A stretch of 51,534 bases of DNA, taken from the sequence record OQ850291, one strand, 5' to 3'. Every line of letters begins with the position of its first letter. Within the stretch, counting starts at the first letter, position 1. Positions 933 to 51,534 of the stretch are shown in pieces. The position numbers were made by a program, and so were the translations under genes. Origin of the DNA: Escherichia phage vB_EcoS_ULIM2. Below the pieces are notes generated by a model that saw only the letters and a list, made by a program, of their open reading frames with translations, was not told the origin of the DNA and ran no database searches.

Positions 933-1601
933 ATGCACTTACCAAATGGCGCACAAATTTTCGTGGAAACCTCTCGCGGAGAAGAGATTGAGGCGACCGC
1001 TATCACTAACGCAAAAAATCCTGTTGCTACAGTTGCATCTAAAGGTGACTTAGTAAAAGGCGATTACGTTATTGTAACTCAGTCAACTTGGGCTAAGATG
1101 GCTAGTCGAGTGCTAATTGTTACTGAAGCTCAGGAAACAAGCATCACCCTTGCTGGAATTGACACCTCTGATACTCTTGTTTTTCCGGCTGGCGGTACGA
1201 TGAGCTTTGCAAAAATTACTGGCTGGACTGAGATTCCTTGCGTTCAGGAGATTGGTCAGGACGGCGGAGAGCAGCAGTATTACACTTATCAGTGTTTGTC
1301 CGACGATAAAGAGCAGCAGATCCCAACGTTTAAATCTGCGGTATCGCTAACGTACACTTTCGCGCACGAATTTGATAACCCTATCTACCCGATTCTGCGC
1401 AAGCTGGATTCGTCTGGTCAGGTAACAGCGGTTCGAATGTACGTTCCGAAAGCGAGCGAAATGCGTATGTGGGCTGGTATCTTGTCGTTTAACGATATTC
1501 CATCCACGCAGGTTAACGAAATGGAAACGGTGGAACTCGCCGTATCCCTGAAAGGTGACTTTACTTTCATTTCCTCCACTCTGGCATCGCCTGGTGCTTA
1601 A
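933..1601 (+). CDS. Major tail (tube) protein (222 aa)
   Basis: ATG at 933 preceded by AGGAG; directly upstream of the chaperone frameshift pair and tape measure gene; followed by a strong terminator. The track ORF starts at 879 inside the previous gene. Confidence 0.55.
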   Translation: MHLPNGAQIFVETSRGEEIEATAITNAKNPVATVASKGDLVKGDYVIVTQSTWAKMASRVLIVTEAQETSITLAGIDTSDTLVFPAGGTMSFAKITGWTEIPCVQEIGQDGGEQQYYTYQCLSDDKEQQIPTFKSAVSLTYTFAHEFDNPIYPILRKLDSSGQVTAVRMYVPKASEMRMWAGILSFNDIPSTQVNEMETVELAVSLKGDFTFISSTLASPGA

Positions 1602-1613
1602 ATCCTATCCATA

Positions 1614-1640
1614 GGGGGCTTGCGCCCCCTTATTCATTTC
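1614..1640 (+). terminator. Rho-independent terminator after the major tail gene
   Basis: GGGGGC-ttgc-GCCCCC hairpin followed by a T-rich tract. Confidence 0.6.
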
Positions 1641-1677
1641 TGTAAAATCATCCTATCAACTTTATTCACTTAACTTT

Positions 1678-1692
1678 TAACAAAAAGTGCTA
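1678..1692 (-). promoter_or_regulatory. Conserved palindromic box (TAGCAC-N4-TGTTA) in leftward orientation
   Basis: Reads TAACAAAAAGTGCTA on the plus strand, 24 nt before the chaperone ATG; a TAGGAT -10 candidate lies 22 bp to the left (1650-1655). Confidence 0.4.
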
Positions 1693-1714
1693 TCAACCAA
1701 TCAGGAGAAACATC

Positions 1715-2032
1715 ATGGCTAAATTCAATTTCGTGTTGGGCCAGCTTCCAGACTTCAAACTTCCGGTGACGTTCACCATGCCAAACGGCGAGGATGCGAC
1801 TATTATTTTTACAGTACGCCACCTTTCCAGTAAAGAAGTGCAAGATATGTATGCGAAGCAGGGCGAAATGAATGATAGCGATTTCATCACTAAGATCGCG
1901 TCAGGCTGGAATCTGGAAGAAGAATTTAACGAAGAGAATGCGCGTAAACTGGTGCAGTATTATCCTTCCGCAGCATACAATCTGACGGCAACTTACATCA
2001 AGGCGCTCGCCGGACACCGCGCAAAAAACTAA
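1715..2032 (+). CDS. Tail assembly chaperone (lambda G-like, 105 aa)
   Basis: ATG at 1715 with AGGAG RBS; located between major tail and tape measure genes; ends at TAA just after a slippery heptamer. Confidence 0.65.
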   Translation: MAKFNFVLGQLPDFKLPVTFTMPNGEDATIIFTVRHLSSKEVQDMYAKQGEMNDSDFITKIASGWNLEEEFNEENARKLVQYYPSAAYNLTATYIKALAGHRAKN

Positions 2033-2387: not shown

Positions 2388-5261
2388 ATGGTTGATAAGG
2401 TAGCAGGTCTGTCGCTTGACGTTGATGTGTCAACAGTGCAGCGCGCAGTCAAGTCACTGAAAGAGTTTTCAAAGGCCAACGACCAGGCCGCTGATTCTAT
2501 GGGTTCTTTAATCAATGAGTCAGAGGTTGCAAAACAGAAGGCCAAAGAACACGCTGAGCAACTTAAGCGCCAGCGCAAAGAGTACGAGGCTGTAGAGAAG
2601 GCAATCGATCCTACAGTATCAAAAATGGAAAGGTTGAAGATTGCATCTCAGCAGCTTGATAAACTCTGGCAGCAGGGAGTCGTTCCAGATGAGACTTTTT
2701 TCCGTTTGGGTGAAATGCTGGATCTGCAAAACGCAAAACTTGCTCGCAGCCGGGCTATGCTTACGGAAGAAGGTCAGGCGGCATTGCAGGAAGCGAAAGC
2801 AAAAGAGCAGGCGGCAGCACGAAGCAAGGCGTTCATGGATGCCCTGAATGGTCAAGTTAACGCGATCGGCAAGACTCATGCTGAATTGATGGAACTGAAA
2901 GCGGCTGAGCTTGGTTTATCGAAAGAAGCAGCACCACTAATCGCAAAACTTAAAGATCAAGGCCGGGCTATGAATGCAGCAGGTATTAGCGCCGGGGAAT
3001 ACAGGCAAGCAATGCGAATGCTTCCTGCACAGATTACCGACGTCGTTACATCACTTGCGTCAGGCATGCCAGTTTGGATGGTTGCCATCCAGCAAGGCGG
3101 TCAAATCAAGGACTCGTTCGGCGGGATCGGTAATACGTTTAAAGTGTTGCTGAGTTATATTAATCCAGTCACAGCAGGGGTTGGCGTTCTCGTTGGCTCG
3201 TTAGGTCTTCTGGCGAAAGCTGGTTATGACTCTTACAAGTCAATAACTGATATTCAGAATGCGCTTATTGAGACTGGCGGTTATGCAGGTGTTACGGCTG
3301 AAGATCTTGATTCAGTGTCTAAAAAGATCGCGCAGACAAGCAACTCAACCATTGGGAGTATTCGCGAGATTGTAACGGAGTTGGCGAGTTCTGGTAAGTA
3401 CACCCGCGAGCAGATCCAGAACATCACTAAGGCGACGGCAGAGTGGTCGGCAGCAACTGGAAAATCAGCAAGCCAAATCATTGCTGAGTTCGACAAAATC
3501 GCAAGCGATCCGGTCAAAGGTCTGGAGAAGTTAAACGAACAATATAACTTCCTTGAAAAAGGTCAACTGACCTATATCGACACGTTAAGCCGGACGAAGG
3601 GTGAAACCGAAGCAGTATCTGAAGCAACGAAATTATTCGCCGACGTAATGGAAAAGCGAATGAAGTCGATCGCGGATAACGCCACACCCCTGGAAAAAAT
3701 GTGGAGCGATATTAAACAATGGGCTTCGGACGCGTGGGGATGGGTTGGAGATCATACACTTGGGGCACTAAACCTGATTATCGACGTTGTTCAGGGTACA
3801 GTGATTCAGGTTAAAATGATTCTTGCGAAGGGTGATGAGTACATCTCAAACTTTATCGCCTCAGCCATAAAGGCAACTCAGTCACTGCCTGGAATGAGTG
3901 ATTTCGGCGCTGATATACTGAAGGAGCAGGAGAATATTGTAAAAAGTTCTCGCGACAACTACGATCAGTTGGCTTCAGAGCTTGATGCTATTAACGCTCG
4001 CGTAGAAAAAGGCGAGATGGGATACGTTGAAGCGATGAAGCAGCGTCGCACTCTTGAAAAGCAGTATAGTGAGGAAACTAAGGAGGCAATAAGGAAAGAA
4101 GCGGAGGAGATCGAGAAGCGAAACCGAGAAAGAAATAAGCAGTCGAAAATTGTCCGCTCGCCGACAGAGCAATTCGACAAGGAGTTAATTTCACTCAAGG
4201 CTCAACTTAAGGTACTGCAGGAGCACAAGGAGATCGGGCAAAAACTTTCTGCCCAGAGAAAGGCGCTGTTTACTACTGAGGCTACGATCGCTGTTCTTCG
4301 CGAAGCTAGTTCTAAGCGTCAGTTGTCTGCGGAAGAAAAAGCGTTGCTGGCAAGTCAGGAGAGAGTTGTAGAACTTGCTAAACAGAAGGCTGAGATTGGC
4401 GATCAGATTGTCAAGCAACAGCAGTTGAACGCACTTACCGACAAGTCACTGAAGTTTGTCAATGAGATGACGGCGGCGACGGAACAGCTTAACGCTTCAC
4501 GCGGTCTTAGCACGCGAGAAATGGAGCGACAAGCGGAATTAGCTAAAATAACCACTGATTATATCAATGCTGGCGGCGGTGAAGGAGACGAAAAACTACA
4601 GAACATGATCAAGGCGCAGAATGATTACTACGCTGCGGAAGATGCCAAACGCGCTGACTGGTTGGCTGGCGCTGAAAGCGCATTCGCTGATTACGGCGAC
4701 TCTGCAATGGATATGTACGGAAACGTTAATGAGATCGCATCAAGTGCTCTAAACGGTATGACGGACATGATGGTTCAGTTCCTCACTACCGGGAAAGCAA
4801 ACTTTGCTGACTTTGCTAAAAATATCATCAGCATGATTATAAAGATGATTGCTCAAATGGTAATCTTCAATACGATCTCAGGAATGATGGGCGGTAAGAC
4901 GTGGAGCTTTGCTGGAGGGGCTTCGTCTGGTGCTTCTGCGGCATCACAGGCAACCCCTGCGCCTGCTGCTTCTGTTTTTAGATCTGTATCTTCCGGCGGG
5001 GTCGCTGTATCACTTGCTGCCGCAGCGGGTAGCGTGGCAACATCTGGATTCAACGCATCAAACTCGGCTCCAAAGGTGGTAAACCATTCAGGAGGTGGAA
5101 CGGTCGTTGACGTTAGCGGAATGGAGGTGAAAGTTGACAACGGTTCAGATCCGAGGGGGATTTCTCATGGTGTAGAAATGATGTTCAAAAAAATGATTCG
5201 TGAGTCTTGTTCGCAGGGCGGCGAGGTTTATAATTACATTCAGGAAAAAACAGGAGGTTAA
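2388..5261 (+). CDS. Tail tape measure protein (957 aa)
   Basis: Largest tail-region ORF; long coiled-coil-like E/K/Q-rich middle and Gly/Ala/Ser-rich C-terminal part; ATG at 2388 with AGGGGG RBS. Confidence 0.8.
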
Positions 5262-5633: not shown

Positions 5634-5655
5634 CCCGCCTTGCGCGGGTTTTTTT
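5634..5655 (+). terminator. Terminator hairpin inside the tail gene cluster
   Basis: CCCGC-cttgc-GCGGG followed by 7 T; the same hairpin recurs at 7813-7835; followed by TGTAGAAT -10-like element. Confidence 0.55.
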
Positions 5656-5696
5656 GTAGCTGTAGAATGGTTGCAGGCAAACAAGAGGAAAAATCA

Positions 5697-7812: not shown

Positions 7813-7835
7813 CCCGCCTTGCGCGGGTTTTTTTT
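7813..7835 (+). terminator. Terminator hairpin before the tail tip gene (same sequence as at 5634)
   Basis: CCCGC-cttgc-GCGGG followed by 8 T; followed by TATAAT at 7842-7847 and a TAGCAC half-box at 7863-7868. Confidence 0.55.
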
Positions 7836-7883
7836 CGCCTGTATAATGAGTCCACCGATAAATAGCACAAAAAGGTAAACATC

Positions 7884-12331: not shown

Positions 12332-12562
12332 TTACCACTCCTTAGTTTTAACTGACACCTTACCGCTAAAGTTTCCCTGGTTGTCGTCTGATGAAAGACC
12401 TTTGAATCGCATGTCAATCTCGCCAGACGGAATCTTATTGCCATCAACGAATCGCATCATGCAAGATCCGTAAGCGTAAGTAACGCAGTCTCCATTTTTA
12501 AGATTCTGGGCGCAACCAGTCAGGATGAATGCAGCAGCAATAATGGTGATTAACTTTTTCAT
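12332..12562 (-). CDS. cor: Small outer-membrane lipoprotein, Cor-like superinfection exclusion candidate (76 aa)
   Basis: Signal peptide with lipobox LTGC; placement next to tail genes as for Cor in T1-like and lambdoid phages; identity by analogy only. Confidence 0.45.
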   Translation of the reverse strand: MKKLITIIAAAFILTGCAQNLKNGDCVTYAYGSCMMRFVDGNKIPSGEIDMRFKGLSSDDNQGNFSGKVSVKTKEW

Positions 12563-12591
12563 TTGTATGTCCTCGTCGTTAGTGTGATTGC

Positions 12592-14921: not shown

Positions 14922-15347
14922 ATGCATATTATCACTGGCGAGATCCGTAAAGAACCTAAGATTCTTGAGCGTAACGGCGGCAATACTTACATCATTGAGC
15001 TGGCAGAAAGCTACAAACCGCGTGATGGCGATCGTGAATACACCAACTACACATTCTTTTTTAGCGATGGTGGAAAGCATGGCCTTGCTGACTGGTATCG
15101 TGAAGCGTTCCAGGTTGGTCGAGTAATCTCAGTATCGTGCGAGACTTTGAAGATCTCATCAAGAGAGCATAACGGAACGATCTACAATTCTTTGCAGGCG
15201 GCTGATTTCCCTAAGCTGATATTCAGCCAACGAGGCCAAAGCAATCAGCAACAACGAGCACCACAGCAACAGCAGCAGCGCACTCAACATCAGTCACAAC
15301 CTCAACCAAATCCTCAGTCAACATTCGACGACGACATTCCATTCTAA
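14922..15347 (+). CDS. ssb: Single-stranded DNA-binding protein (141 aa)
   Basis: Q/P-rich linker and acidic C-terminal tip DDDIPF, the canonical SSB tail. Confidence 0.8.
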   Translation: MHIITGEIRKEPKILERNGGNTYIIELAESYKPRDGDREYTNYTFFFSDGGKHGLADWYREAFQVGRVISVSCETLKISSREHNGTIYNSLQAADFPKLIFSQRGQSNQQQRAPQQQQQRTQHQSQPQPNPQSTFDDDIPF

Positions 15348-15353
15348 TAAAAA

Positions 15354-15380
15354 GCCCCGCATCAGCGGGGCATATTTTTA
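15354..15380. terminator. Bidirectional terminator between SSB and the convergent tail fibre gene
   Basis: GCCCCGC-atca-GCGGGGC with A-rich and T-rich flanks on either side. Confidence 0.6.
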
Positions 15381-17738
15381 CTTGCTCTCAAGTAATGATT
15401 TTACAATCAACTTCAATTCCTCAACATCATTCCTTAATGAAATAATTTCTTCCTCCTGCTCTTTACACACTTGCACCGCGTATGCGGCAATAGCACCATA
15501 ATCCACCTGGAAGAAGCGCTGACGCCCTACCAGTTCCTCGCCGTCTTGCGTTGGCCCCGCAAGGTGTTCGTAGTCTTCGAACGTACTCACCGCTTCCGGC
15601 ACAACGTCCATTACTTCCTGCGCAATAACCCCGGCGTAAGGCATGCCGTCTTTTTTCATGGTGTAGGTATAACCGCCCATCTTAGCAAGGCCAGCGCGGG
15701 CGTTCTCGATCGGCTTGATGTTATCCTTCAACTCGCGGTCAGACGACTGGTTTACCGTCGTACAGTTTACCGTTCCGTTAACGTTCATCTGTCTAGTGCC
15801 GTTGCCGTTATACTGGGCGTAAAAAAGCCACCCCGGACCATCTTCAAGCCCAAACTCAATAACCGACGCTCGATCTGACCCGTTGCCCCACAATTTGAAG
15901 GTTGCAGGGTGTGACGAGTTGCCGTCGTTAAGCATTTTGAAATACTTGCCACTTGGTCGACTGATCTCCAAGCTCGTCGCTTGAACGTATGCTTTTCCCG
16001 CGAAATTCTTAGTTCCGAGTACGACGCCGTCAGTTATCAATTCAACTTTAGAAGACGTTATATCGTTCAGGAATATCGCGCTCGTCCCGGTGTCCTTCCC
16101 TAAAAACCAAAGACGTTTTCCTGCGGAGTTGTACCCTGTTACGTGCAGTGGTTGGTTGTTTGTTGCGGCGGTGCCGTCGATACGAAATCCTCCATTGACT
16201 GTCGTAACTTTAATGCTAGGTACGGTCATAGCAAAAGTGCCACTGGCGGCAAGTCCATTATACGCGATCAGCTTGTTGTCATATGCAAGCTCACCATTGT
16301 CCCTTAATTGCAAGAATTTATTAGATGCCGAGTTGTGAATAACTACATCATTGGCGCCAGGTTCAATAGTTATGATCTTTCCGTCAACGGAAGCTCGCAC
16401 CGCAGGTCCAGTAATTACTCCGGAAAAAGTCGGCGACGACCCCGCGTTATACAATTCGTACCACTCTGACCAATTTCCAGTTGCCCCATTACTAATCCAG
16501 CGCATCCACCGACGCCCGTCTAAGTATGTTGTGTAAGTCTGCACGCAGCTTGTCACGACGTTAGCACCAGTACGCTGCACCAGCAAGCAACCAGCCGAGG
16601 CGACTGGATAGTTACGCTCAGGGGTGGCGTTCGACGACATGGACTGAAAGTAAAATCCAGCCTTATCCCCTTTCAATACGTTAAGGTCTTCGCTTACCAA
16701 CGTCGCCCGTCTTTCATGCATTGCCTGAAGGTTGGCGCGCGCTCCCTGGTCGTTAGATGCTCCCGTCCCGCCGTCCGCGATCGCCACGTCCCCGTTTGAC
16801 CCCAGCTTAGCCAGCTCGATAGCGCTCACATTCCCCGAGGAGCCGTTGATAGCGTTATTGTTTCCCGAGAAAACCTTCACGCGAGAGGTCTGGAAGTCAA
16901 CGTTAAACGCAAAAAATGTGTCACCAGCGCCACCGCAAATACCCGGACCGTATTTGAACGGGGTCATTTGCCCGGATGGAAACTGACTTATATCGTCAAC
17001 TCGCCAAAAACCGCCTTTGACCGAATCGCGCAACCTTTTTAGCATATCAGCAACGCTTGTTGGGGCGTTGATAGTGGCTCCAACTTTATCAACCTTTTTT
17101 GACGCATCAGCGCTATTCGCGAATTGCTCAGCTTCGTCTCGAAATCCTTTAGCCTGGTCTTTCGCGGTTATGGCCTGCGATCTAGCTGTCTCAGCGGCGG
17201 TCTTTGCGCTGTTGGCGTTCGTCTCACTGGTCTTTGCTGCATTCTTGCTTTGCTCTGCCGATGTTGCAAATTGACTTGCGGCATCACGGCTTGCAGCGGA
17301 TGCGTCGCGAGCAAGCTCAGCTTGATTCTGCGCAGCTTCTGCGGCTGATTTGTTCGCCTTAATTTCCTCAACGATACGGTTAAGGTTATCCATATCCAGA
17401 CTCGCAATGATATCCATTGCCCCGGCAATCTCAGTCTCTTTGCTCTGGTAGTACCGAAGCGTCTCAGCAACGTTTTGAGCCAACCCGTTAACGGTCAATG
17501 AATCGTTAAGCAAGATTACATACTTACCGTCAGCGGCAGTCTGACCATCCGTAGAGATAGCCTTTAACTCTGTGTCGCTCACAATATCGCTGATTACCGC
17601 CAGCTTAATTGGTTGCTCCAGGAATACGATAGTTGCACCGACTCGAATCAAAGCAAGCTGATCTTTCCATTTTGTGTCGGTTCCGTGAACCGTGCCGTCT
17701 GCATCCATTGATGCTGTACCGCGTCTATATAAAGCCAT
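15378..17738 (-). CDS. Tail fibre protein with C-terminal intramolecular chaperone domain (786 aa)
   Basis: Ala/Ser/Gln-rich coiled N-terminal region; C-terminal SSDRELKDNIKPIENARAGLAKMGGYTYTMK resembles the peptidase S74 autocleaving chaperone domain; ATG at 17738 with AAGGAG. Confidence 0.65.
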   Translation of the reverse strand: MALYRRGTASMDADGTVHGTDTKWKDQLALIRVGATIVFLEQPIKLAVISDIVSDTELKAISTDGQTAADGKYVILLNDSLTVNGLAQNVAETLRYYQSKETEIAGAMDIIASLDMDNLNRIVEEIKANKSAAEAAQNQAELARDASAASRDAASQFATSAEQSKNAAKTSETNANSAKTAAETARSQAITAKDQAKGFRDEAEQFANSADASKKVDKVGATINAPTSVADMLKRLRDSVKGGFWRVDDISQFPSGQMTPFKYGPGICGGAGDTFFAFNVDFQTSRVKVFSGNNNAINGSSGNVSAIELAKLGSNGDVAIADGGTGASNDQGARANLQAMHERRATLVSEDLNVLKGDKAGFYFQSMSSNATPERNYPVASAGCLLVQRTGANVVTSCVQTYTTYLDGRRWMRWISNGATGNWSEWYELYNAGSSPTFSGVITGPAVRASVDGKIITIEPGANDVVIHNSASNKFLQLRDNGELAYDNKLIAYNGLAASGTFAMTVPSIKVTTVNGGFRIDGTAATNNQPLHVTGYNSAGKRLWFLGKDTGTSAIFLNDITSSKVELITDGVVLGTKNFAGKAYVQATSLEISRPSGKYFKMLNDGNSSHPATFKLWGNGSDRASVIEFGLEDGPGWLFYAQYNGNGTRQMNVNGTVNCTTVNQSSDRELKDNIKPIENARAGLAKMGGYTYTMKKDGMPYAGVIAQEVMDVVPEAVSTFEDYEHLAGPTQDGEELVGRQRFFQVDYGAIAAYAVQVCKEQEEEIISLRNDVEELKLIVKSLLESK

Positions 17739-17814
17739 AGTATAAACTCCTTAAGTAAATAGCACGAATTGCTAAGCACTGATTTTATCATTGTGCTATG
17801 AGTCTTGCAATGGT

Positions 17815-19288: not shown

Positions 19289-19301
19289 CTTGATTCTCCT
19301 A

Positions 19302-19344
19302 TAGCACTTTTTGCTAAAAACGTTTACTGTATGCCGTGTATTAT
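19302..19344 (+). promoter_or_regulatory. Box-type promoter for the helicase operon
   Basis: TAGCAC (19302-19307), TTGCTA (19311-19316), 22-bp spacer, TATTAT (19339-19344), enclosed by inverted repeat CGTTTAC/GTAAACG. Confidence 0.5.
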
Positions 19345-19368
19345 AGCGTAAACGCTACAATGATTCAA
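19340..19368 (-). promoter_or_regulatory. Sigma70-type promoter for the HTH gene, face-to-face with the helicase promoter
   Basis: Minus strand TTGAAT (19363-19368), 17-bp spacer, TATAAT (19340-19345); the -10 overlaps the plus-strand -10 by 5 bp. Confidence 0.5.
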
Positions 19369-19381
19369 AGGATTAATAGCC

Positions 19382-22842: not shown

Positions 22843-22876
22843 TTGCTAAAAATACCCGGCGAAAGTCGGGTATAGT
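22835..22876 (+). promoter_or_regulatory. Box-type promoter
   Basis: CAGCAC-N3-TTGCTA (22835-22848), 22 bp, TATAGT (22871-22876), leader CATCGAAACGAAATGAGGAA. Confidence 0.5.
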
Positions 22877-24830: not shown

Positions 24831-24864
24831 TTGATAAAAACGCCCGAATGGATTCGGGCATAGT
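24823..24864 (+). promoter_or_regulatory. Box-type promoter
   Basis: TCGCAC-N3-TTGATA (24823-24836), 22 bp, CATAGT (24859-24864) within inverted repeat CGCCCGAATGG/GATTCGGGC; leader CATCGAAAACGAAGAGG. Confidence 0.45.
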
Positions 24865-26558: not shown

Positions 26559-26601
26559 AATATACCCGATACGAGATCGGGTGTTTTAACAAAAAGTGCT
26601 A
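26559..26601 (-). promoter_or_regulatory. Box-type promoter (leftward)
   Basis: Minus strand TAGCAC-N4-TGTTA (26587-26601), 22 bp, TATATT (26559-26564) inside inverted repeat CCCGAT/ATCGGG. Confidence 0.5.
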
Positions 26602-31060: not shown

Positions 31061-31102
31061 AAACTTTTCTCCTGGGTTAGTTATTAACAAAAAGTGCTAT
31101 AC

Positions 31103-31440: not shown

Positions 31441-31471
31441 CCTGTCATTCTCCTGATTGGTTGATGTGTTC

Positions 31472-31514
31472 ACTATACCCCGATTCCCTTCGGGGAGTTT
31501 AGCAATTCGTGCTA
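31472..31514 (-). promoter_or_regulatory. Box-type promoter (leftward)
   Basis: Minus strand TAGCAC-N3-TTGCTA (31500-31514), 22 bp, TATAGT (31472-31477) within inverted repeat CCCCGAAGGG/AATCGGGG. Confidence 0.5.
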
Positions 31515-32909: not shown

Positions 32910-33099
32910 TTCCAATAATTGCTCATTATTCCATCAATTGTGGAATATGTGGAATAATTCTGATTGTTATTGATTGCGAATGACGAAACGTGATTATTGC
33001 ATGATGTGCAACAGTTGGTTGATTTGTTGATGAGAACGCAATGATTGTTAGAGGGAGGATCTGGTGTTGCCCGGCTCGCCTGGTAGTCATCTCCATTTT

Positions 33100-33114
33100 T
33101 AGCAAAAAGTGCTA
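33100..33114 (-). promoter_or_regulatory. Second palindromic box upstream of the PP-loop gene, no obvious -10
   Basis: TAGCAC-N3-TTGCTA on the minus strand; the position 22 bp downstream is not -10-like. Confidence 0.35.
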
Positions 33115-33391
33115 TCGATTACGATTATGCTTGATTGTGTGTTAATCCATGTATATGATTTGCATAAATCGCAATCGTAGACAAAATTACACCAAATTAC
33201 GCCCTATAATATACATATAGATATATGTATATATATAATATATAAGTGTTTTTTTATTTATATATATAGATACTATTATTTGTAATATGGCTGTATAGCG
33301 TGTCTACTATGTTAATCGTTGGATGCTCTGGTTATGATATTCATGTTTATATATACAGTAGTTTTATCGGCTCATATTTATATGGGAAAAG

Positions 33392-34490: not shown

Positions 34491-34521
34491 TATCCCATCA
34501 ACAACGAATGAGGAAGCGAAG

Positions 34522-36221: not shown

Positions 36222-36252
36222 AACCCCATCGACAACGAACGAGGATACAAAC

Positions 36253-37319: not shown

Positions 37320-37468
37320 TGACGGCGTGGATTTTGATTATCTTGATGAGTACCGGGGCGGATCACGTATACATGAACAGCCAGCAATCATGCAACGAGG
37401 CTCAGGCAGTTATTGCAGAGAATAAGCCGTTCGGGTACGAAGTGAAAACGATGTGTGTTAAAAAATAG
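37319..37468 (+). CDS. Small protein with hydrophobic N-terminus (49 aa), not in the ORF track
   Basis: TAATG overlap with the upstream stop; translation begins MTAWILIILMSTG. Confidence 0.35.
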   Translation: MTAWILIILMSTGADHVYMNSQQSCNEAQAVIAENKPFGYEVKTMCVKK

Positions 37469-37508
37469 CACGAATTGCTAAACCTTCCGCAAGGCCATTT
37501 GATACAGT
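37466..37508 (+). promoter_or_regulatory. Box-type promoter
   Basis: TAGCAC (37466-37471), TTGCTA (37475-37480), 22 bp, TACAGT (37503-37508) within inverted repeat GGCCA/TGGCC. Confidence 0.5.
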
Positions 37509-37548
37509 GGCCTTATTGAAGCAGAGCAACCAATCAGAGGAATCAGCT

Positions 37549-37836
37549 ATGAGAAAAACTCATAAGTTAAAAATCGCTCCGGTACATTTCATCGGAGTAA
37601 TGAACGGAACAAAAACGGCAGAGTTCCGCATCAATGACCGCAACTTCCAGGTTGGTGATATCCTTGAGCTACGCGAGTTCGATCGTGACGAGTTTACCGG
37701 GTGGGAAGTTCACGCCAGGGTGTCCGATGTTACAGACGTGACGCCATACATCAATCGCGGTTATGACGAGCAAGAATGCGACTTCACGCAATACGTGATG
37801 TTATCAATCAAGCCTTACAGGAAGGTTGGACCATGA
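37549..37836 (+). CDS. ASCH/PUA-like domain protein (DUF3850-like, 95 aa)
   Basis: KTHKLKIAPVHF...EFRINDRNFQVGDILELRE matches the pattern of small phage ASCH-like proteins from memory; ATG after the CCAATCAGAGGAATCA leader. Confidence 0.45.
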   Translation: MRKTHKLKIAPVHFIGVMNGTKTAEFRINDRNFQVGDILELREFDRDEFTGWEVHARVSDVTDVTPYINRGYDEQECDFTQYVMLSIKPYRKVGP

Positions 37837-38471
37837 AATTTGAGTGCGTATCAAGTAGCGGATCTGGTTTTAAGTTGGGAAAAACTTACAAAGGTGTTCG
37901 CGTAAATGATGACAGCTTCATCATTACTGATGAGAACGGTTGCAACGTGAACGTTGTACGGCGTCACGAATATCAGGAAATTTTCCTGCCTTATGGCGGT
38001 AGCTCAAAATATATCTTCCATCGAATCGTGGATGGTGTTAAATTTAACGACGTAATCGAAGCAATCAACCAACTGCATAATAAAGAGGTAAAATTTATGA
38101 AATTCGAATGTATCAGTGATAACACTAAAAAATTTACCGTTGGCAAAATCTACGACGTGCCTACTGAGCACGCAAAGCACACTGTAGCGCTGACCGACGA
38201 CACGGGCCGCCACCGAATTGCAACCGTAACGCATAATGGCGAAGGTCTTCGCTGGAACAGTGGTGGCACTAAGTTCGCAACGTTCGGCAAGAAGCGCAAG
38301 CGCACTTTCAGCGTCAATGGCAATGTTGCAGCTAACAAGATCCACAACGTCAAGCCGTCGGAAGTTGACCGTAAGCCAGCGCTGAAGTTTGAAGAGAAGG
38401 CAGATTTGTCTGGTCTAGCTATCGCTCTTGTTCTCCTGGTCGCTTCGATTTCGCTGTTGTTCATCATGTAA
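37833..38471 (+). CDS. Hypothetical protein with internal tandem duplication and C-terminal transmembrane anchor (212 aa)
   Basis: Two repeats beginning MKFECVSSSGSGFKLGKTYKG and MKFECISDNTKKFTVGKIYDV; C-terminal LSGLAIALVLLVASISLLFIM; the second repeat has its own in-frame AAGAGG RBS and ATG at 38097. Confidence 0.5.
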   Translation: MKFECVSSSGSGFKLGKTYKGVRVNDDSFIITDENGCNVNVVRRHEYQEIFLPYGGSSKYIFHRIVDGVKFNDVIEAINQLHNKEVKFMKFECISDNTKKFTVGKIYDVPTEHAKHTVALTDDTGRHRIATVTHNGEGLRWNSGGTKFATFGKKRKRTFSVNGNVAANKIHNVKPSEVDRKPALKFEEKADLSGLAIALVLLVASISLLFIM

Positions 38472-38478
38472 TGCTAAT

Positions 38479-38512
38479 GGGGAATCGGCTCTGAACGGTT
38501 CCCCTTTCTTTT
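38479..38512 (+). terminator. Rho-independent terminator
   Basis: GGGGAA-N14-TTCCCC followed by TTTCTTTT. Confidence 0.5.
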
Positions 38513-38524
38513 GGAGAAAACACT

Positions 38525-38635
38525 ATGCCAGACTTTTCTAATTGGAAAAACGAACCTCCATCATTTCAGGAGTTGTTATTCTGCCTCCTGGTTCTGACGC
38601 TATCTCTTAAGGGGGTGTTATGGCTACTATCATGA
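38525..38635 (+). CDS. Small peptide with hydrophobic C-terminus (36 aa), not in the ORF track
   Basis: ATG 7 nt after GGAG; translation MPDFSNWKNEPPSFQELLFCLLVLTLSLKGVLWLLS; overlaps the start of the next gene. Confidence 0.3.
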   Translation: MPDFSNWKNEPPSFQELLFCLLVLTLSLKGVLWLLS

Positions 38636-38838
38636 CCGCAGAAGATGCAGCACGTGACGCAGTGGAAGGAATGCGACCAAATACGTCCAGAATCGCCCAC
38701 TGCTACAAATTTGATGTGTCGGCAGTGCAGTTGGTACACGAAATTTTAAGGCTCCCACAAGTCGATTCAGCGCGCGTGGTGACGTGCTTAAAAAATTATT
38801 TTTGCATCACTATTAAAACGAATAGCACGAATTGCTAA
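38620..38838 (+). CDS. Hypothetical protein (72 aa)
   Basis: ORF-track ORF with GGGGG RBS; its 3' end runs into a box-type promoter. Confidence 0.4.
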   Translation: MATIMTAEDAARDAVEGMRPNTSRIAHCYKFDVSAVQLVHEILRLPQVDSARVVTCLKNYFCITIKTNSTNC

Positions 38839-38865
38839 AACTTACTCAAGGGTATTTGATAGAAT
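38823..38865 (+). promoter_or_regulatory. Box-type promoter
   Basis: TAGCAC (38823-38828), TTGCTA (38832-38837), 22 bp, TAGAAT (38860-38865). Confidence 0.5.
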
Positions 38866-38904
38866 GCCCTTCGTTGAGTTAAGCAACCAATCAGAGGAAT
38901 CACT

Positions 38905-42109: not shown

Positions 42110-42122
42110 TATGTCTGCAATA

Positions 42123-42146
42123 TGGTAAAATAGCACTAAATGTTAA
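42123..42146 (+). promoter_or_regulatory. Late promoter candidate with the palindromic box downstream of the -10
   Basis: TGgTAAAAT at 42123-42131 followed immediately by TAGCAC-N4-TGTTA (42131-42146); TerS ATG at 42164. Confidence 0.4.
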
Positions 42147-42163
42147 ACAAAGAGGATGGATTT

Positions 42164-47993: not shown

Positions 47994-48470
47994 ATGGCAC
48001 AGATTAACGCATCTTATCAGCGCGATATGGCGATCGCCCTTCCGGGTATGGTTGCCGATACTTCCAAGTACAATATTGACGGCGCCTGCGTCGTTAATGA
48101 AGGAGATGTTTTTGTTGGCGCTGCCGTACAGGTTGTTCAAGCTCAGGCGGTTGATGGTCATAAGTTAGTTAAGGCTCTTACTACCGGAACCACTCCTTAC
48201 GGCGTGGCAATCCGATCTCACTGGCAGACTGTTAATGCTCAAAATCAGATGGTTTACGAAGATGGCGGCGCTATCAACGTGATGACTTCAGGCCGAGTAT
48301 GGATGCTTTCCAAATCTACCGAAGCACCAACTTTCGGCTCTGCCGTTAAACTTGATGTTGATGGTCAAGAGAAATCTGATGGCACGATCGAAACAACCTG
48401 GACCTACGCTGGCGGCTGGACTAAATACAAAGATATTCAGCTTGTAGAGGTTCAGTTGCATCAACTGTAA
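47994..48470 (+). CDS. Capsid-associated protein, paralog A (158 aa), putative decoration protein
   Basis: N-terminal 100 residues align by eye with the next gene (ADTSKYNIDGACV / SDTSTYNIDGSCV; TTPYGVAIRS / GTPYGIAFRS). Confidence 0.45.
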   Translation: MAQINASYQRDMAIALPGMVADTSKYNIDGACVVNEGDVFVGAAVQVVQAQAVDGHKLVKALTTGTTPYGVAIRSHWQTVNAQNQMVYEDGGAINVMTSGRVWMLSKSTEAPTFGSAVKLDVDGQEKSDGTIETTWTYAGGWTKYKDIQLVEVQLHQL

Positions 48471-48529: not shown

Positions 48530-49297
48530 ATGGCTTACGAAAATTTGTTCTTGCGCCCAGCGTGTCCTGGCAATCTTTCTGATACTTCAACCTACAATAT
48601 TGATGGATCTTGTGTTGCTCAGGGTGATATTGAGTTCGGCGCTGCGGTTCAGGTTGCCGGGATCGTTGATGGAGTGAAGGTTGTAAAGGCTCTTGATGAT
48701 GGTGGAACTCCTTACGGTATCGCTTTCCGTTCTCAATATGAACACCTGAGCGGTAAAATCTTAGACGGTGAAGTTTGCAACGTCGTTTCTCATGGTCGCA
48801 TGTGGACCCTCACTTCTCTTGATGAATCTCCGGCCTTATTCTCAAAGTTACAATTTGGATCTGGTGGAGTTGTTACTGGTGGATCTGGTTCCGCAGGATG
48901 GACCTTTGCGGGTGGCTTTGTTAAGCACGAAGACGGTCACATTATTGAGGTTCAGGTGAAACAAAATGCTTTCATCGTTCCACCGCCGCCGCCCCCTGTC
49001 GTTCTTGTTGAATCCGCTACAATCACCACTAACAAGGAAAGTCCTCAGCCAAACAATGTTACGATCCAGTGTGTAGCTAATGTTCTTCCGGTTAATGCAA
49101 CTGACAAGACTGGTAAGTGGTCAATCGATGCCACCAATATCGCCACCATCGATCCGGACTCAGGTCTTGTGACTCCTGTTGGTGGAGAAACAGTCGGTGA
49201 TTTCAATATCACATGGACGGCTAACGATGACAGCAAGACGACGGCGACCATTGCTTATCGCGTAGAAGCAGTGCCAACGCCAGAGGTTGATGTATAA
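48530..49297 (+). CDS. Capsid-associated protein, paralog B, with poly-proline linker and Ig-like (Big_2-type) C-terminal domain (255 aa)
   Basis: Shared N-terminal domain with paralog A; PPPPPPVVLV linker; C-terminal region with alternating beta-like pattern typical of bacterial Ig-like domains. Confidence 0.45.
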   Translation: MAYENLFLRPACPGNLSDTSTYNIDGSCVAQGDIEFGAAVQVAGIVDGVKVVKALDDGGTPYGIAFRSQYEHLSGKILDGEVCNVVSHGRMWTLTSLDESPALFSKLQFGSGGVVTGGSGSAGWTFAGGFVKHEDGHIIEVQVKQNAFIVPPPPPPVVLVESATITTNKESPQPNNVTIQCVANVLPVNATDKTGKWSIDATNIATIDPDSGLVTPVGGETVGDFNITWTANDDSKTTATIAYRVEAVPTPEVDV

Positions 49298-49318
49298 CAT
49301 AAAAACACTTTAACGCTT

Positions 49319-49333
49319 TAACAAAAAGTGCTA
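49319..49333 (-). promoter_or_regulatory. Palindromic box in leftward orientation at the end of paralog B
   Basis: Reads TAACAAAAAGTGCTA on the plus strand; candidate -10 TATACA 22 bp to the left. Confidence 0.35.
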
Positions 49334-49341
49334 TTATTGAA

Positions 49342-49367
49342 GCCGTGAACATAATCACGGCTTTTTT
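49342..49367 (+). terminator. Rho-independent terminator before the major capsid gene
   Basis: GCCGTGA-acataa-TCACGGC followed by TTTTTT. Confidence 0.6.
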
Positions 49368-49388: not shown

Positions 49389-50348
49389 ATGACTACTAAA
49401 AAATTTGATGAAGCAGATAAAAGCAATGTTGAAATGTATCTGATCCAGGCTGGCGTAAAACAGGATGCAGCCGCAACGATGGGTATTTGGACCGCTCAGG
49501 AACTACACCGCATCAAAAGCCAGTCCTATGAAGAAGACTACCCGGTCGGCTCCGCTCTACGCGTATTCCCGGTTACAACCGATCTTTCTCCGACTGATAA
49601 GACGTTTGAATACATGACCTTTGATAAGGTTGGTACTGCGCAGATTATCGCGGACTACACTGACGACCTGCCGCTTGTTGATGCCCTGGGTACTTCTGAG
49701 TTCGGTAAAGTGTTCCGCCTGGGTAACGCGTACCTGATTTCAATTGACGAAATCAAAGCAGGTCAGGCAACTGGTCGTCCGCTGTCAACTCGTAAGGCAA
49801 GCGCATGTCAGTTAGCACACGACCAACTGGTTAACCGCCTGGTGTTCAAAGGTTCAGCGCCGCACAAGATCGTGTCCGTGTTCAATCATCCGAACATCAC
49901 CAAAATTACCTCCGGTAAGTGGATGGATGGCGCAACTCAGAAACCGGAAACGGCTGAAGCTGAATTGACTCAAGCGATCGAAACCATCGAGACGATTACT
50001 CGGGGCCAACACCGAGCAACCAACATCCTGATTCCGCCTTCCATGCGTAAGGTTTTGGCGATTCGTATGCCTGAGACTACTATGTCTTATCTGGACTATT
50101 TCAAGTCTCAGAACTCCGGTATCGAAATCGACTCTATCGCAGAGCTTGAGGATATCGACGGCGCAGGCACTAAAGGTGTGCTGGTGTACGAAAAGAATCC
50201 GATGAACATGTCCATCGAGATCCCGGAAGCATTTAACATGCTGCCAGCGCAGCCGAAAGACTTGCACTTTAAAGTGCCTTGCACCTCTAAATGTACTGGT
50301 CTTACAATTTATCGCCCGATGACTATTGTCTTAATCACTGGCGTGTAA
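49389..50348 (+). CDS. Major capsid protein (319 aa)
   Basis: Position in the head module, flanked by terminators on both sides, GGAG RBS; size typical of HK97-fold capsid proteins. Confidence 0.6.
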   Translation: MTTKKFDEADKSNVEMYLIQAGVKQDAAATMGIWTAQELHRIKSQSYEEDYPVGSALRVFPVTTDLSPTDKTFEYMTFDKVGTAQIIADYTDDLPLVDALGTSEFGKVFRLGNAYLISIDEIKAGQATGRPLSTRKASACQLAHDQLVNRLVFKGSAPHKIVSVFNHPNITKITSGKWMDGATQKPETAEAELTQAIETIETITRGQHRATNILIPPSMRKVLAIRMPETTMSYLDYFKSQNSGIEIDSIAELEDIDGAGTKGVLVYEKNPMNMSIEIPEAFNMLPAQPKDLHFKVPCTSKCTGLTIYRPMTIVLITGV

Positions 50349-51142: not shown

Positions 51143-51513
51143 TGAACTACTCACAGATTGAAAGGATGGCTCGCAAAGGCGTTGCTTTCTTCACCGATCC
51201 GTCAAGACCTATGAACCTGATAAAACAAGGTGAATACGGATATGATGAAAACGGATTTGAGATCCCACCAATGGAACAGGTTATTCCAATATCCGGCGCG
51301 ACGCGAAGACCTAACGCGCGTGAGATTGACGGTGAAACTATCCGCGCCTCAGATATTTTGGGGATCTTCAATAATGATCATGAAATAAACGAAGGTGACT
51401 ATATAGAGATTGATGGCATTCGTCATGTTGTCGTTGATGCTCGCCCGGTTCAGGCGTCACTGGAACCAATCGCCTATCGTCCAGTATTGCGGAGGGTATC
51501 AGTAGGTGGCTAA
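51142..51513 (+). CDS. Putative head-tail adaptor protein (123 aa), crosses the repeat junction
   Basis: ATG at 51142 with GGAGG RBS; its last 106 nt lie inside the terminal repeat and are duplicated at positions 1-106. Confidence 0.4.
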   Translation: MNYSQIERMARKGVAFFTDPSRPMNLIKQGEYGYDENGFEIPPMEQVIPISGATRRPNAREIDGETIRASDILGIFNNDHEINEGDYIEIDGIRHVVVDARPVQASLEPIAYRPVLRRVSVGG

Positions 51514-51534
51514 TTATCAAATTCGTAGATTTCA

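Follow-up and report, generated by a model that had tools for sequence, protein, structure and literature searches.

Reversed copies of a marbox-like repeat at two late promoters of a T1-like phage: candidate sites of negative control

Introduction

Why would a phage carry a promoter element backwards inside operons that run the other way? The genome of Escherichia phage vB_EcoS_ULIM2 (record OQ850291; the window analysed here is the whole 51,534-nt sequence) contains a family of short boxes that read toward the genes they precede. Two exact plus-strand copies of the 15-mer TAACAAAAAGTGCTA, at 1678-1692 (site 1) and 49319-49333 (site 2), are reversed with respect to these gene-directed copies. 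An earlier note on this DNA had singled them out as boxes pointing leftward, each with a -10-like hexamer on the minus strand 22 nt from the 15-mer (TAGGAT at 1650-1655 and TATACA at 49291-49296) and neither with a leftward gene to serve. That description holds, and there is no leftward ORF of note downstream of either box. The note proposed that both sites start antisense RNAs or, alternatively, that a palindromic box binds its factor in either orientation as a roadblock or insulator at terminators.

The evidence presented here assigns the two sites different roles. Our preferred reading, with a probability of roughly 0.55, is that both boxes would put late promoters under the negative control of a box-binding factor, and that antisense RNA would be made at site 1 only. 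Sequence architecture, spacing and conservation are observed directly, and from them we infer factor binding, the sign of regulation, start sites and timing.

The late structural block

By megablast, ULIM2 is a Tunavirus (Drexlerviridae) with 92-96% identity to T1, Eco_BIFF and similar phages. Bases 1-127 are an exact direct repeat of 51408-51534 (127 bp), and the 51,534-nt sequence is a circularly closed or assembled complete T1-like genome of about 51.4 kb. Because its ends are circular, sites 1 and 2 lie only about 3.7 kb apart, in a single late structural block. It runs from a cement protein and an Ig-like cement protein through the major capsid protein and the connectors to the major tail tube, the tail chaperone and the tape measure (Table 1). 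The gene upstream of site 2 (48530-49297), which the earlier note had called a capsid paralog, is a cement/decoration protein with a Big_2 Ig-like domain, and its paralogue is the cement/decoration protein at 47994-48470 (Pfam Phage_cement; T1 annotation).

Table 1. Features at the two reversed boxes and at related control regions of ULIM2 (window coordinates)
Feature	Position	Strand or direction	Details
Major tail tube gene	933..1601	+	Pfam Phage_tail_3, E=9.6e-71; target of any leftward P_L transcript
Intrinsic terminator of major tail gene	1613..1630	+	Minus-strand RNA has the same hairpin, no U tract
P_R, sigma-70 promoter of the tail chaperone/tape-measure unit	1620..1648	+ (rightward)	TTGCGC (1620-1625)-17-TAAAAT (1643-1648); predicted TSS ~1655
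P_L, candidate leftward extended -10	1650..1658	-	TGA-TAGGAT; exactly 18 bp from the 20-mer; predicted TSS ~1643
Site 1, 20-bp marbox-type box	1674..1693	-	ATAGCACTTTTTGTTAAAAG; core 1678-1692
Tail assembly chaperone gene	1715..2032	+	Pfam Phage_TAC_4, E=2.6e-37; T1 annotation; first gene 3' of P_R
Late-promoter box	7862..7881	+	About +9 to +28 of TTGCGC (7819-7824)-17-TATAAT (7842-7847), J-like tail fibre gene
Box reversed relative to leftward fibre gene (15378-17738)	17759..17778	+	Just downstream of leftward TTGCAA-17-TAAAAT
Helicase box promoter	19301..19344	rightward	Box 19301-19320, 18 bp, TATTAT (19339-19344); with the pir promoter (together 19301-19368) an internal analogue of site 1
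pir sigma-70 promoter	19340..19368	leftward	TTGAAT (19363-19368), 17 bp, TATAAT (19340-19345); overlaps helicase box promoter
Late-unit box	42130..42149	+	Right after TATGGT (42121-42126), before small-terminase ribosome-binding site; no -10 at 18 bp
Leftward -10 candidate at site 2	49291..49296	-	TATACA; no T at position 6; overlaps stop codon of upstream gene
P_MCP, sigma-70 promoter	49310..49337	+ (rightward)	TTAACG, 16-bp spacer, TGC-TATTAT (49329-49337); scanner 9/12 with TG
Site 2, 20-bp marbox-type box	49315..49334	-	ATAGCACTTTTTGTTAAAGC; backward, about -29 to -10 of P_MCP
Terminator hairpin between P_MCP and capsid gene	49339..49364	+	Predicted P_MCP start 49344/5 in its 5' arm
Major capsid protein gene	49389..50348	+	Pfam Major_capside, E=4.8e-63

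A repeat with marbox sequence and geometry

Allowing up to three mismatches, the motif family has 19 matches in ULIM2 against 1.97 expected. Some 23 gene-directed copies read TAGCACTTTTTGTTA (TAGCACnnnTTGyTA) toward their gene, so the copies at sites 1 and 2, which share a stretch of 18 nt (TTTAACAAAAAGTGCTAT), point leftward inside rightward late operons. The full conserved element is 20 bp long (ATAGCACnnnTTGyTAAAA) and occurs about 27 times per 51 kb. Its usual layout is the box, exactly 18 bp that often form a G+C hairpin, the hexamer TAnnnT, a conserved leader and the gene; TAnnnT stands at exactly 18 bp from 18 boxes and at 17-19 bp from several more.

Two features of these promoters are recorded for their own sake. 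In many genes the 5' leader that separates the -10 from the start codon is of a conserved type, CATCGAAACGA(A) / CATCAACAACGA and CAACCAATCAGGAG (for example at 34491-34510, 36222-36240 and 31450-31470); the second of these also directly follows the site-1 box. In many early promoters the 18-bp spacer holds a G+C-rich hairpin followed by a T-rich -10 (22853-22870, 26565-26582, 31478-31495 and 24841-24858), and these hairpins may be terminators of the upstream gene embedded in the next promoter.

What kind of protein would bind such an element? The published 15-mer marbox consensus GCANNWWNTGNNAAA (gcannwwntgnnaaa; PMC12052159) has 23 exact matches in ULIM2 against 1.0 expected, and the 20-mer consensus of Martin and Rosner (A-notG-R-GCAC-R-WW-NN-R-YY-AAA-notG-N, as quoted in PMC2453137) has 22 matches with at most one mismatch against 0.5 expected. 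Exact matches number one in lambda and 20 in T1, and Rtp, which belongs to another subfamily, has 13 box promoters with the same 18-bp spacing. Class II marboxes are forward sites that overlap the -35 at -36 to -55, with their centre at -41.5 (PMC12052159; PMC9638938). The micF promoter of E. coli K-12 reads ACAGCACTGAATGTCAAAAC, 18 bp, TAGAAT, and the annotated 5' end of micF RNA lies 8 nt after the -10. Class II promoters of MarA, SoxS and Rob, with micF as the example, thus resemble the phage promoters point by point: an asymmetric site of 20 bp that contains GCAC and YAAA elements, a -35 that departs from consensus, a TAnnnT 18 bp away and a centre at about -41.5, which is exactly the arrangement of site 1, read leftward. 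The ULIM2 sites differ in belonging to a virulent phage and in being nearer the consensus than most host sites, and they are candidates for MarA/SoxS/Rob binding. By its class II marbox sequence and geometry, the box is a predicted activator site at about -41.5 of T1-like non-structural promoters.

The palindromy ascribed to the box by the earlier note is only partial. It is confined to TAGCA/TGCTA (5+5 bp), with asymmetric flanks (aaA on the 5' side, AAAA on the 3' side) and G/Y positions that differ between the halves, and this asymmetry is kept at site 2 too. The two-fold symmetry of half-sites and flanks that marks the palindromic operator of a dimeric helix-turn-helix protein such as Pir was looked for in the box and not found. 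Asymmetrically conserved flanks around a partial palindrome are more in keeping with a monomer of the marbox type than with a symmetric dimer, and it is the 20-mer (1674-1693 and 49315-49334), rather than the 15-mer, that forms the functional unit.

The same element is on record as a 21-nt direct repeat of open function in TLS, T1, Rtp and Rogue1 (aaATAGCACnnnTTGnTAAAA; Kropinski and co-workers, PMC11447400). These authors considered a stoperator, an enhancer or an UP-like element and described the repeats as following the direction of transcription. They did not discuss a reversed copy, although site 2 has its homologue in TLS DR7 (negative strand, 15044..15024, beside terminator T35), and they connected the repeats neither with marboxes nor with a -10 placed 18 bp away.

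Site 1: two predicted opposed promoters on one stretch of DNA

Conservation was followed in relatives drawn from 63 IMG/VR loci, found with the capsid protein as query and with the chaperone gene located in each. At the site-1 locus, 32 distinct sequences carry the reversed box and 20, TLS among them, lack both the box and a segment of about 40 nt. The box, exactly 18 bp and TAnnnT recur in all 32 box-bearing relatives, with TGn ahead of the hexamer in 28 of them. Nine leftward hexamers are found (TAGGAT, TACGAT, TAAGAT, TAGCAT, TACAGT, TAGAGT, TATCAT, TATATT and TATCTT), and they vary at positions 3-5 only. The sequence of the 18-bp spacer has largely diverged between lineages, and the chaperone of some box-bearing relatives is only 53-63% identical to that of ULIM2. 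Between terminator and box the relatives show no indels; the box keeps a fixed distance from the leftward -10 but lies 12-23 nt from the rightward ATG. A leftward TAnnnT at the corresponding place occurs in none of the 20 box-lacking relatives. The ULIM2 box itself matches the 15-mer consensus exactly and the 20-mer with one mismatch; read leftward it lies forward over the -35, centred at about -41.5 and some 18 bp from the -10, as in class II. Site 1 is, on this pattern, a complete putative leftward activator-dependent promoter, P_L, with the conserved signature of a functional one.

A rightward sigma-70 promoter, P_R, shares the same DNA. Its -35 sits in the loop of the major tail gene terminator, and the pattern TTGCGC-17-TAnAAT is kept in all lineages, box-bearing and box-lacking alike. 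It scores 8/12 in the promoter scan, below the threshold of 9/12, so its identification comes from conservation. A gap of 1 bp separates the -10 hexamers of P_L and P_R, which lie on opposite strands, and the box falls at about +20 to +39 of P_R; the two promoters cannot both hold polymerase at once. In the leftward -10, the three conserved positions are at the same time the discriminator and -1/+1 of P_R, and they may in part be conserved for the sake of that promoter.

Two rightward roles for the reversed boxes were tried and rejected. Site 1 might have been an extended -10 reading GTGC-TATCAA, but the corresponding hexamers (TATCAA, TATTAA, TATCGG, TATCAC, TATTTA, TATTCA, TATAAG and TATTAC among the relatives) never end in T. 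Class I action, from an upstream backward marbox, fails on geometry, since transcription would then begin within the chaperone gene or on the ribosome-binding site of the capsid gene.

Could the box be a leftover? One account needs no factor at all: site 2 would owe its conservation solely to serving a strong promoter as spacer and extended -10, and site 1 would be the decaying relic of a promoter for a lost leftward gene. Gene turnover does occur here, since in Rtp the site-1 position (16303-16322) is taken by a canonical box promoter that faces forward and drives an additional gene, rtp34. A relic, however, would not keep box, spacing and TAnnnT through nine different hexamers in genomes whose chaperones have diverged so far, and we hold this account, site 2 included, to be very unlikely.

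Still more improbable, in our judgement, is an element acting at the RNA level, such as an A/U-rich translational enhancer or a protein-binding site in the 5' leader of the chaperone mRNA. The site-1 box does adjoin the ribosome-binding site, 21 nt before the chaperone ATG, and boxes 7862-7881 and 42130-42149 likewise adjoin ribosome-binding sites, as do those at 31081-31100 and 33096-33115. But it is the distance to the ATG that varies and the distance to the leftward -10 that is fixed; the site-2 box lies upstream of the predicted start, and the forward form and its reverse complement would be different RNAs. The boxes at 31081-31100 (-) and 33096-33115 (-) match the full consensus and sit so close to the ribosome-binding site or start codon that there is no room for a -10.

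What would P_L transcribe? The predicted leftward RNA runs through the terminator hairpin, which lacks a U tract in this direction, and into the tail tube gene, and no minus-strand terminator for it was found. With the architecture of site 1 kept and no such terminator, one may reasonably predict that leftward transcripts enter the major tail gene from its 3' end, and to that extent the antisense proposal is partly supported. The RNA shows no ORF and no fold beyond the terminator hairpin (z = -1.24), and an Rfam search of ULIM2 returned no matches, so that neither a conserved structure nor a known family marks it as a cis-antisense RNA.

Site 2: a box in the core of the capsid promoter

Site 2 has a different neighbour. 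P_MCP, already annotated as a promoter in the GenBank records of T1 and SA30RD, has the -35, the 16-18 bp spacing, the TGn and the TAnnnT of a sigma-70 extended -10 promoter, and the reversed box, kept in 58 distinct relatives, lies within it. Among these relatives the -35 is TTGnnn in 57 (TTGACG, TTGCAC, TTGAAC or TTGACC), the spacer is a constant 16 bp, TGC is present in all 58 and the -10 is TAnnnT in 55 (TATTAT, TATCAT, TATATT or TATTCT); the other three have a 1-nt insertion and still keep TATCAT. An A tract precedes the -35. The ULIM2 -35, TTAACG (49310-49315), is the sole exception and is weaker than TTGnnn; peculiar to ULIM2, it reflects either a down-mutation or an error of sequencing.

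Leftward, little is conserved. TAnnnT stands at the required offset in only 2 of 58 relatives, the others having TATGCA, TATGCG, TAGCAC and the like, and the class II layout was not found in this direction. This bears on the proposal that both boxes are leftward promoters whose antisense RNAs base-pair with the major tail and cement/capsid mRNAs. It draws on the complete, conserved site-1 promoter with no minus-strand terminator, where antisense RNA is likely, and on the TGn that precedes the candidate hexamer at both sites in ULIM2. Against it stand the TATACA of site 2 and its rarely conserved counterparts, the lack of any special fold, Rfam match or ORF in the site-1 RNA, and the 20 distinct relatives that do without site 1. 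As an explanation of both sites it is unlikely, and site 2, where it is the rightward promoter that is kept instead, does not support the antisense claim.

Is the box conserved at site 2 merely because it is promoter DNA? Its end, GTGCTAT, does supply the TGn-TAT of the extended -10, as the account without a factor would have it. Yet promoter spacers are not normally conserved, and here the positions that the marbox specifies are kept in 58 of 58 relatives while free positions change (TTT to GAA in the core, T to C), which argues that factor binding, and not promoter function alone, has been selected. The box matches the 15-mer marbox exactly and has two mismatches to the 20-mer (T at position 8, G at position 19), and it therefore lies outside the results of the one-mismatch 20-mer search.

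A marbox over a promoter spacer has a precedent in pbpG, where it leads to repression by MarA, SoxS and Rob (PMC12052159). Site 2 likewise overlaps spacer and -10: the box lies backward over the spacer and extended -10 of P_MCP, so a bound factor would compete with sigma-70 and, by analogy, repress. Further cases of repression from a marbox in the core promoter are reportedly rob, purA and hdeA (Schneiders and Levy, 2004/2006). What differs at site 2 is the target: a late phage promoter, and a strong one, preceded by an A tract and closely followed by a terminator. Site 2 thus appears to be a repressor-type position, and its annotation should assign it to the capsid promoter rather than to an antisense one.

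The terminator downstream of P_MCP folds at -15.2 kcal/mol when complete, as in read-through RNA, and at -5.3 or -3.3 kcal/mol in RNA starting at 49344 or 49345. The RNA made from P_MCP folds weakly, and therefore the terminator is predicted to stop transcripts from upstream and not those of P_MCP itself. The start-in-hairpin arrangement is kept in most relatives; in those whose capsid protein is only 57% identical to that of ULIM2, the terminator lies upstream instead.

Could the two boxes be roadblocks or insulators, at which a bound factor, with no promoter function, halts read-through or incoming polymerases at operon borders? Both lie within about 70 bp of intrinsic terminators, other late-unit boxes stand in leaders without a -10, and a stoperator-like role was raised by the TLS authors (PMC11447400). 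The idea nevertheless leaves the fixed 18 bp to TAnnnT at site 1 unexplained. Site 2, in a promoter core and upstream of the terminator, is placed for promoter occlusion and not for an elongation block, and a monomeric marbox-type binder would probably make a weak roadblock. We regard such a role as improbable for the pair, although factor binding as such, the alternative offered by the earlier note, comes nearer the truth for site 2, with the box as a putative operator in the promoter core and not as a terminator insulator.

The stoperators of mycobacteriophage L5 are another comparison: they have one orientation, block elongation and are bound by the prophage repressor. Like the ULIM2 boxes they are asymmetric sites present in many copies across a phage genome, some of them in transcribed late operons. 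They differ in that most ULIM2 copies lie at -41.5 of promoters, and the fixed orientation of L5 stoperators is not seen among the late boxes of ULIM2, which face both ways (1674 -, 49315 -, 7862 +, 42130 +).

Boxes at other control regions

Three further late units have boxes at operator-like positions, judged from their placement: 7862-7881, 42130-42149 and 17759-17778 (Table 1). The first, the homologue of TLS DR8, has no -10 at 18 bp, and the third has no conserved opposing -10. A separate regularity concerns the late promoters themselves. The module at 1620-1648 recurs at 5640-5668 and 7819-7847, with TTGCGC in a terminator loop, 17 bp that include the T tract and TAnAAT; in each, terminator and promoter are fused into one unit.

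The pir/helicase control region (19289-19381) offers an internal parallel to site 1, with the same topology: a strong sigma-70 promoter reads toward a box whose dependent promoter fires the opposite way. As at P_R and P_L the -10 regions of the T1 pair overlap, and the sigma-70 partner has been found experimentally to be down-regulated (PMC6737242). At pir/helicase, however, both promoters have genes and their hexamers (TATTAT at 19339-19344 and TATAAT at 19340-19345) overlap with a 1-bp offset, whereas at site 1 no gene belongs to the leftward promoter and the hexamers lie side by side, offset by 7 bp; binding of Pir to the box would be putative. The pir promoter also contains a unique perfect palindrome, TAGCGTAAACGCTA, at 19344-19357, which may be the Pir operator. 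As a general operator it was rejected, with 5 matches against 4 expected.

Rtp shows how far these rules extend. Its capsid promoter (12460-12576 region) reads TTGCGT-17-TATAAT and has no box. Within its late region, rtp20 and the structural gene rtp22 each have a forward box promoter ahead of them, so a logic in which the box means early expression only is not universal. With 20 distinct relatives lacking site 1 and Rtp lacking a box in the capsid promoter, the proposed control is therefore dispensable.

Candidates for the box-binding factor

If the box is a marbox, does the phage encode its own MarA? A phmmer search with MarA and SoxS against all six-frame ULIM2 ORFs gave a best E of 0.9. 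A Pfam search of 20 non-structural ORFs, which comprise every ORF of at least 95 aa with no assigned function, found no AraC-type helix-turn-helix, only a Cro-like one in Pir, and two 'RipR-like' ORFs had no match among PDB sequences. A phage-encoded MarA-like activator was accordingly set aside, no AraC/MarA-like protein being detectable in ULIM2.

Pir is another candidate. The ULIM2 protein is 98% identical to that of T1, a Cro-like regulator under which the dam and hol promoters are activated and those of recE and of pir itself are repressed; it affects some box promoters, but the canonical box promoter of T1 orf65 is Pir-independent (PMC6737242). The reported targets do not track the box: Pir activates T1 hol, which lacks a canonical box, and leaves the canonical orf65 promoter unaffected. 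Pir as box binder is left open and is not favoured. T1 orf65 is itself a regulator, reported to repress pir and to activate its own box promoter (PMC6737242); a homologue is absent from ULIM2, as judged over about 37465-38900 in comparison with T1 4344-4864. With no AraC/MarA-like phage protein and with Pir targets off the pattern, the candidates are therefore host MarA, SoxS or Rob, Pir, or another phage factor.

A model for the reversed boxes

How would one box act at both sites? In the model that we prefer, the active factor would switch on the -41.5 promoters of non-structural genes and, from the same kind of site, hold late promoters down. At site 1 it would draw RNA polymerase to P_L; polymerase bound there would cover roughly 1623-1698 and so occlude P_R (1620-1655). 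A non-coding RNA that runs antisense into the last part of the major tail gene would then be a by-product or an added layer of control. At site 2 the bound factor would compete with sigma-70 at the spacer and extended -10 and repress the capsid promoter.

Who would supply the factor is a more tentative matter. It is possible, at somewhat less than even odds, that near-consensus class II marbox promoters make up almost all T1-like non-structural promoters, that host MarA, SoxS or Rob (or RamA), or an unrecognised phage mimic of them, drives early and middle transcription, and that the same site acts negatively on late promoters. On that reading a single limiting factor could set the early-to-late switch, for example through its titration by replicating phage DNA or through the decay of unstable host activators.

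What is new here? The repeat itself and the rightward capsid promoter were already on record. The literature searched contained no T1-family transcriptome, start-site or binding reports and no link between marboxes and phages. Nor did it contain anything that equates the repeat with a marbox in class II geometry, tells the two reversed copies apart, describes a conserved promoter opposing P_R at site 1 or places the box of site 2 within a promoter core. As kinds of regulatory site, the reversed boxes belong with what is familiar: class II activator sites, repression by an operator within a promoter, and overlapping opposed promoters.

Significance

T1 is a classical phage; we know of no polymerase or sigma factor that it has of its own, and to our knowledge its transcription programme is still unexplained. 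In TLS few sigma-70 promoters were found, and the conserved repeat was left without a function. The present analysis offers three hypotheses: that the repeat is a look-alike of the class II marbox, that its reversed copies occupy repressor-type positions at late promoters, and that one of them forms a conserved opposing promoter. Together they suggest how the early genes are turned on and the late genes held back, and they bear on whether host stress regulators control a virulent phage. If host marbox activators do drive T1-like promoters, the development of these phages would be coupled to the stress and bile signals of the host.
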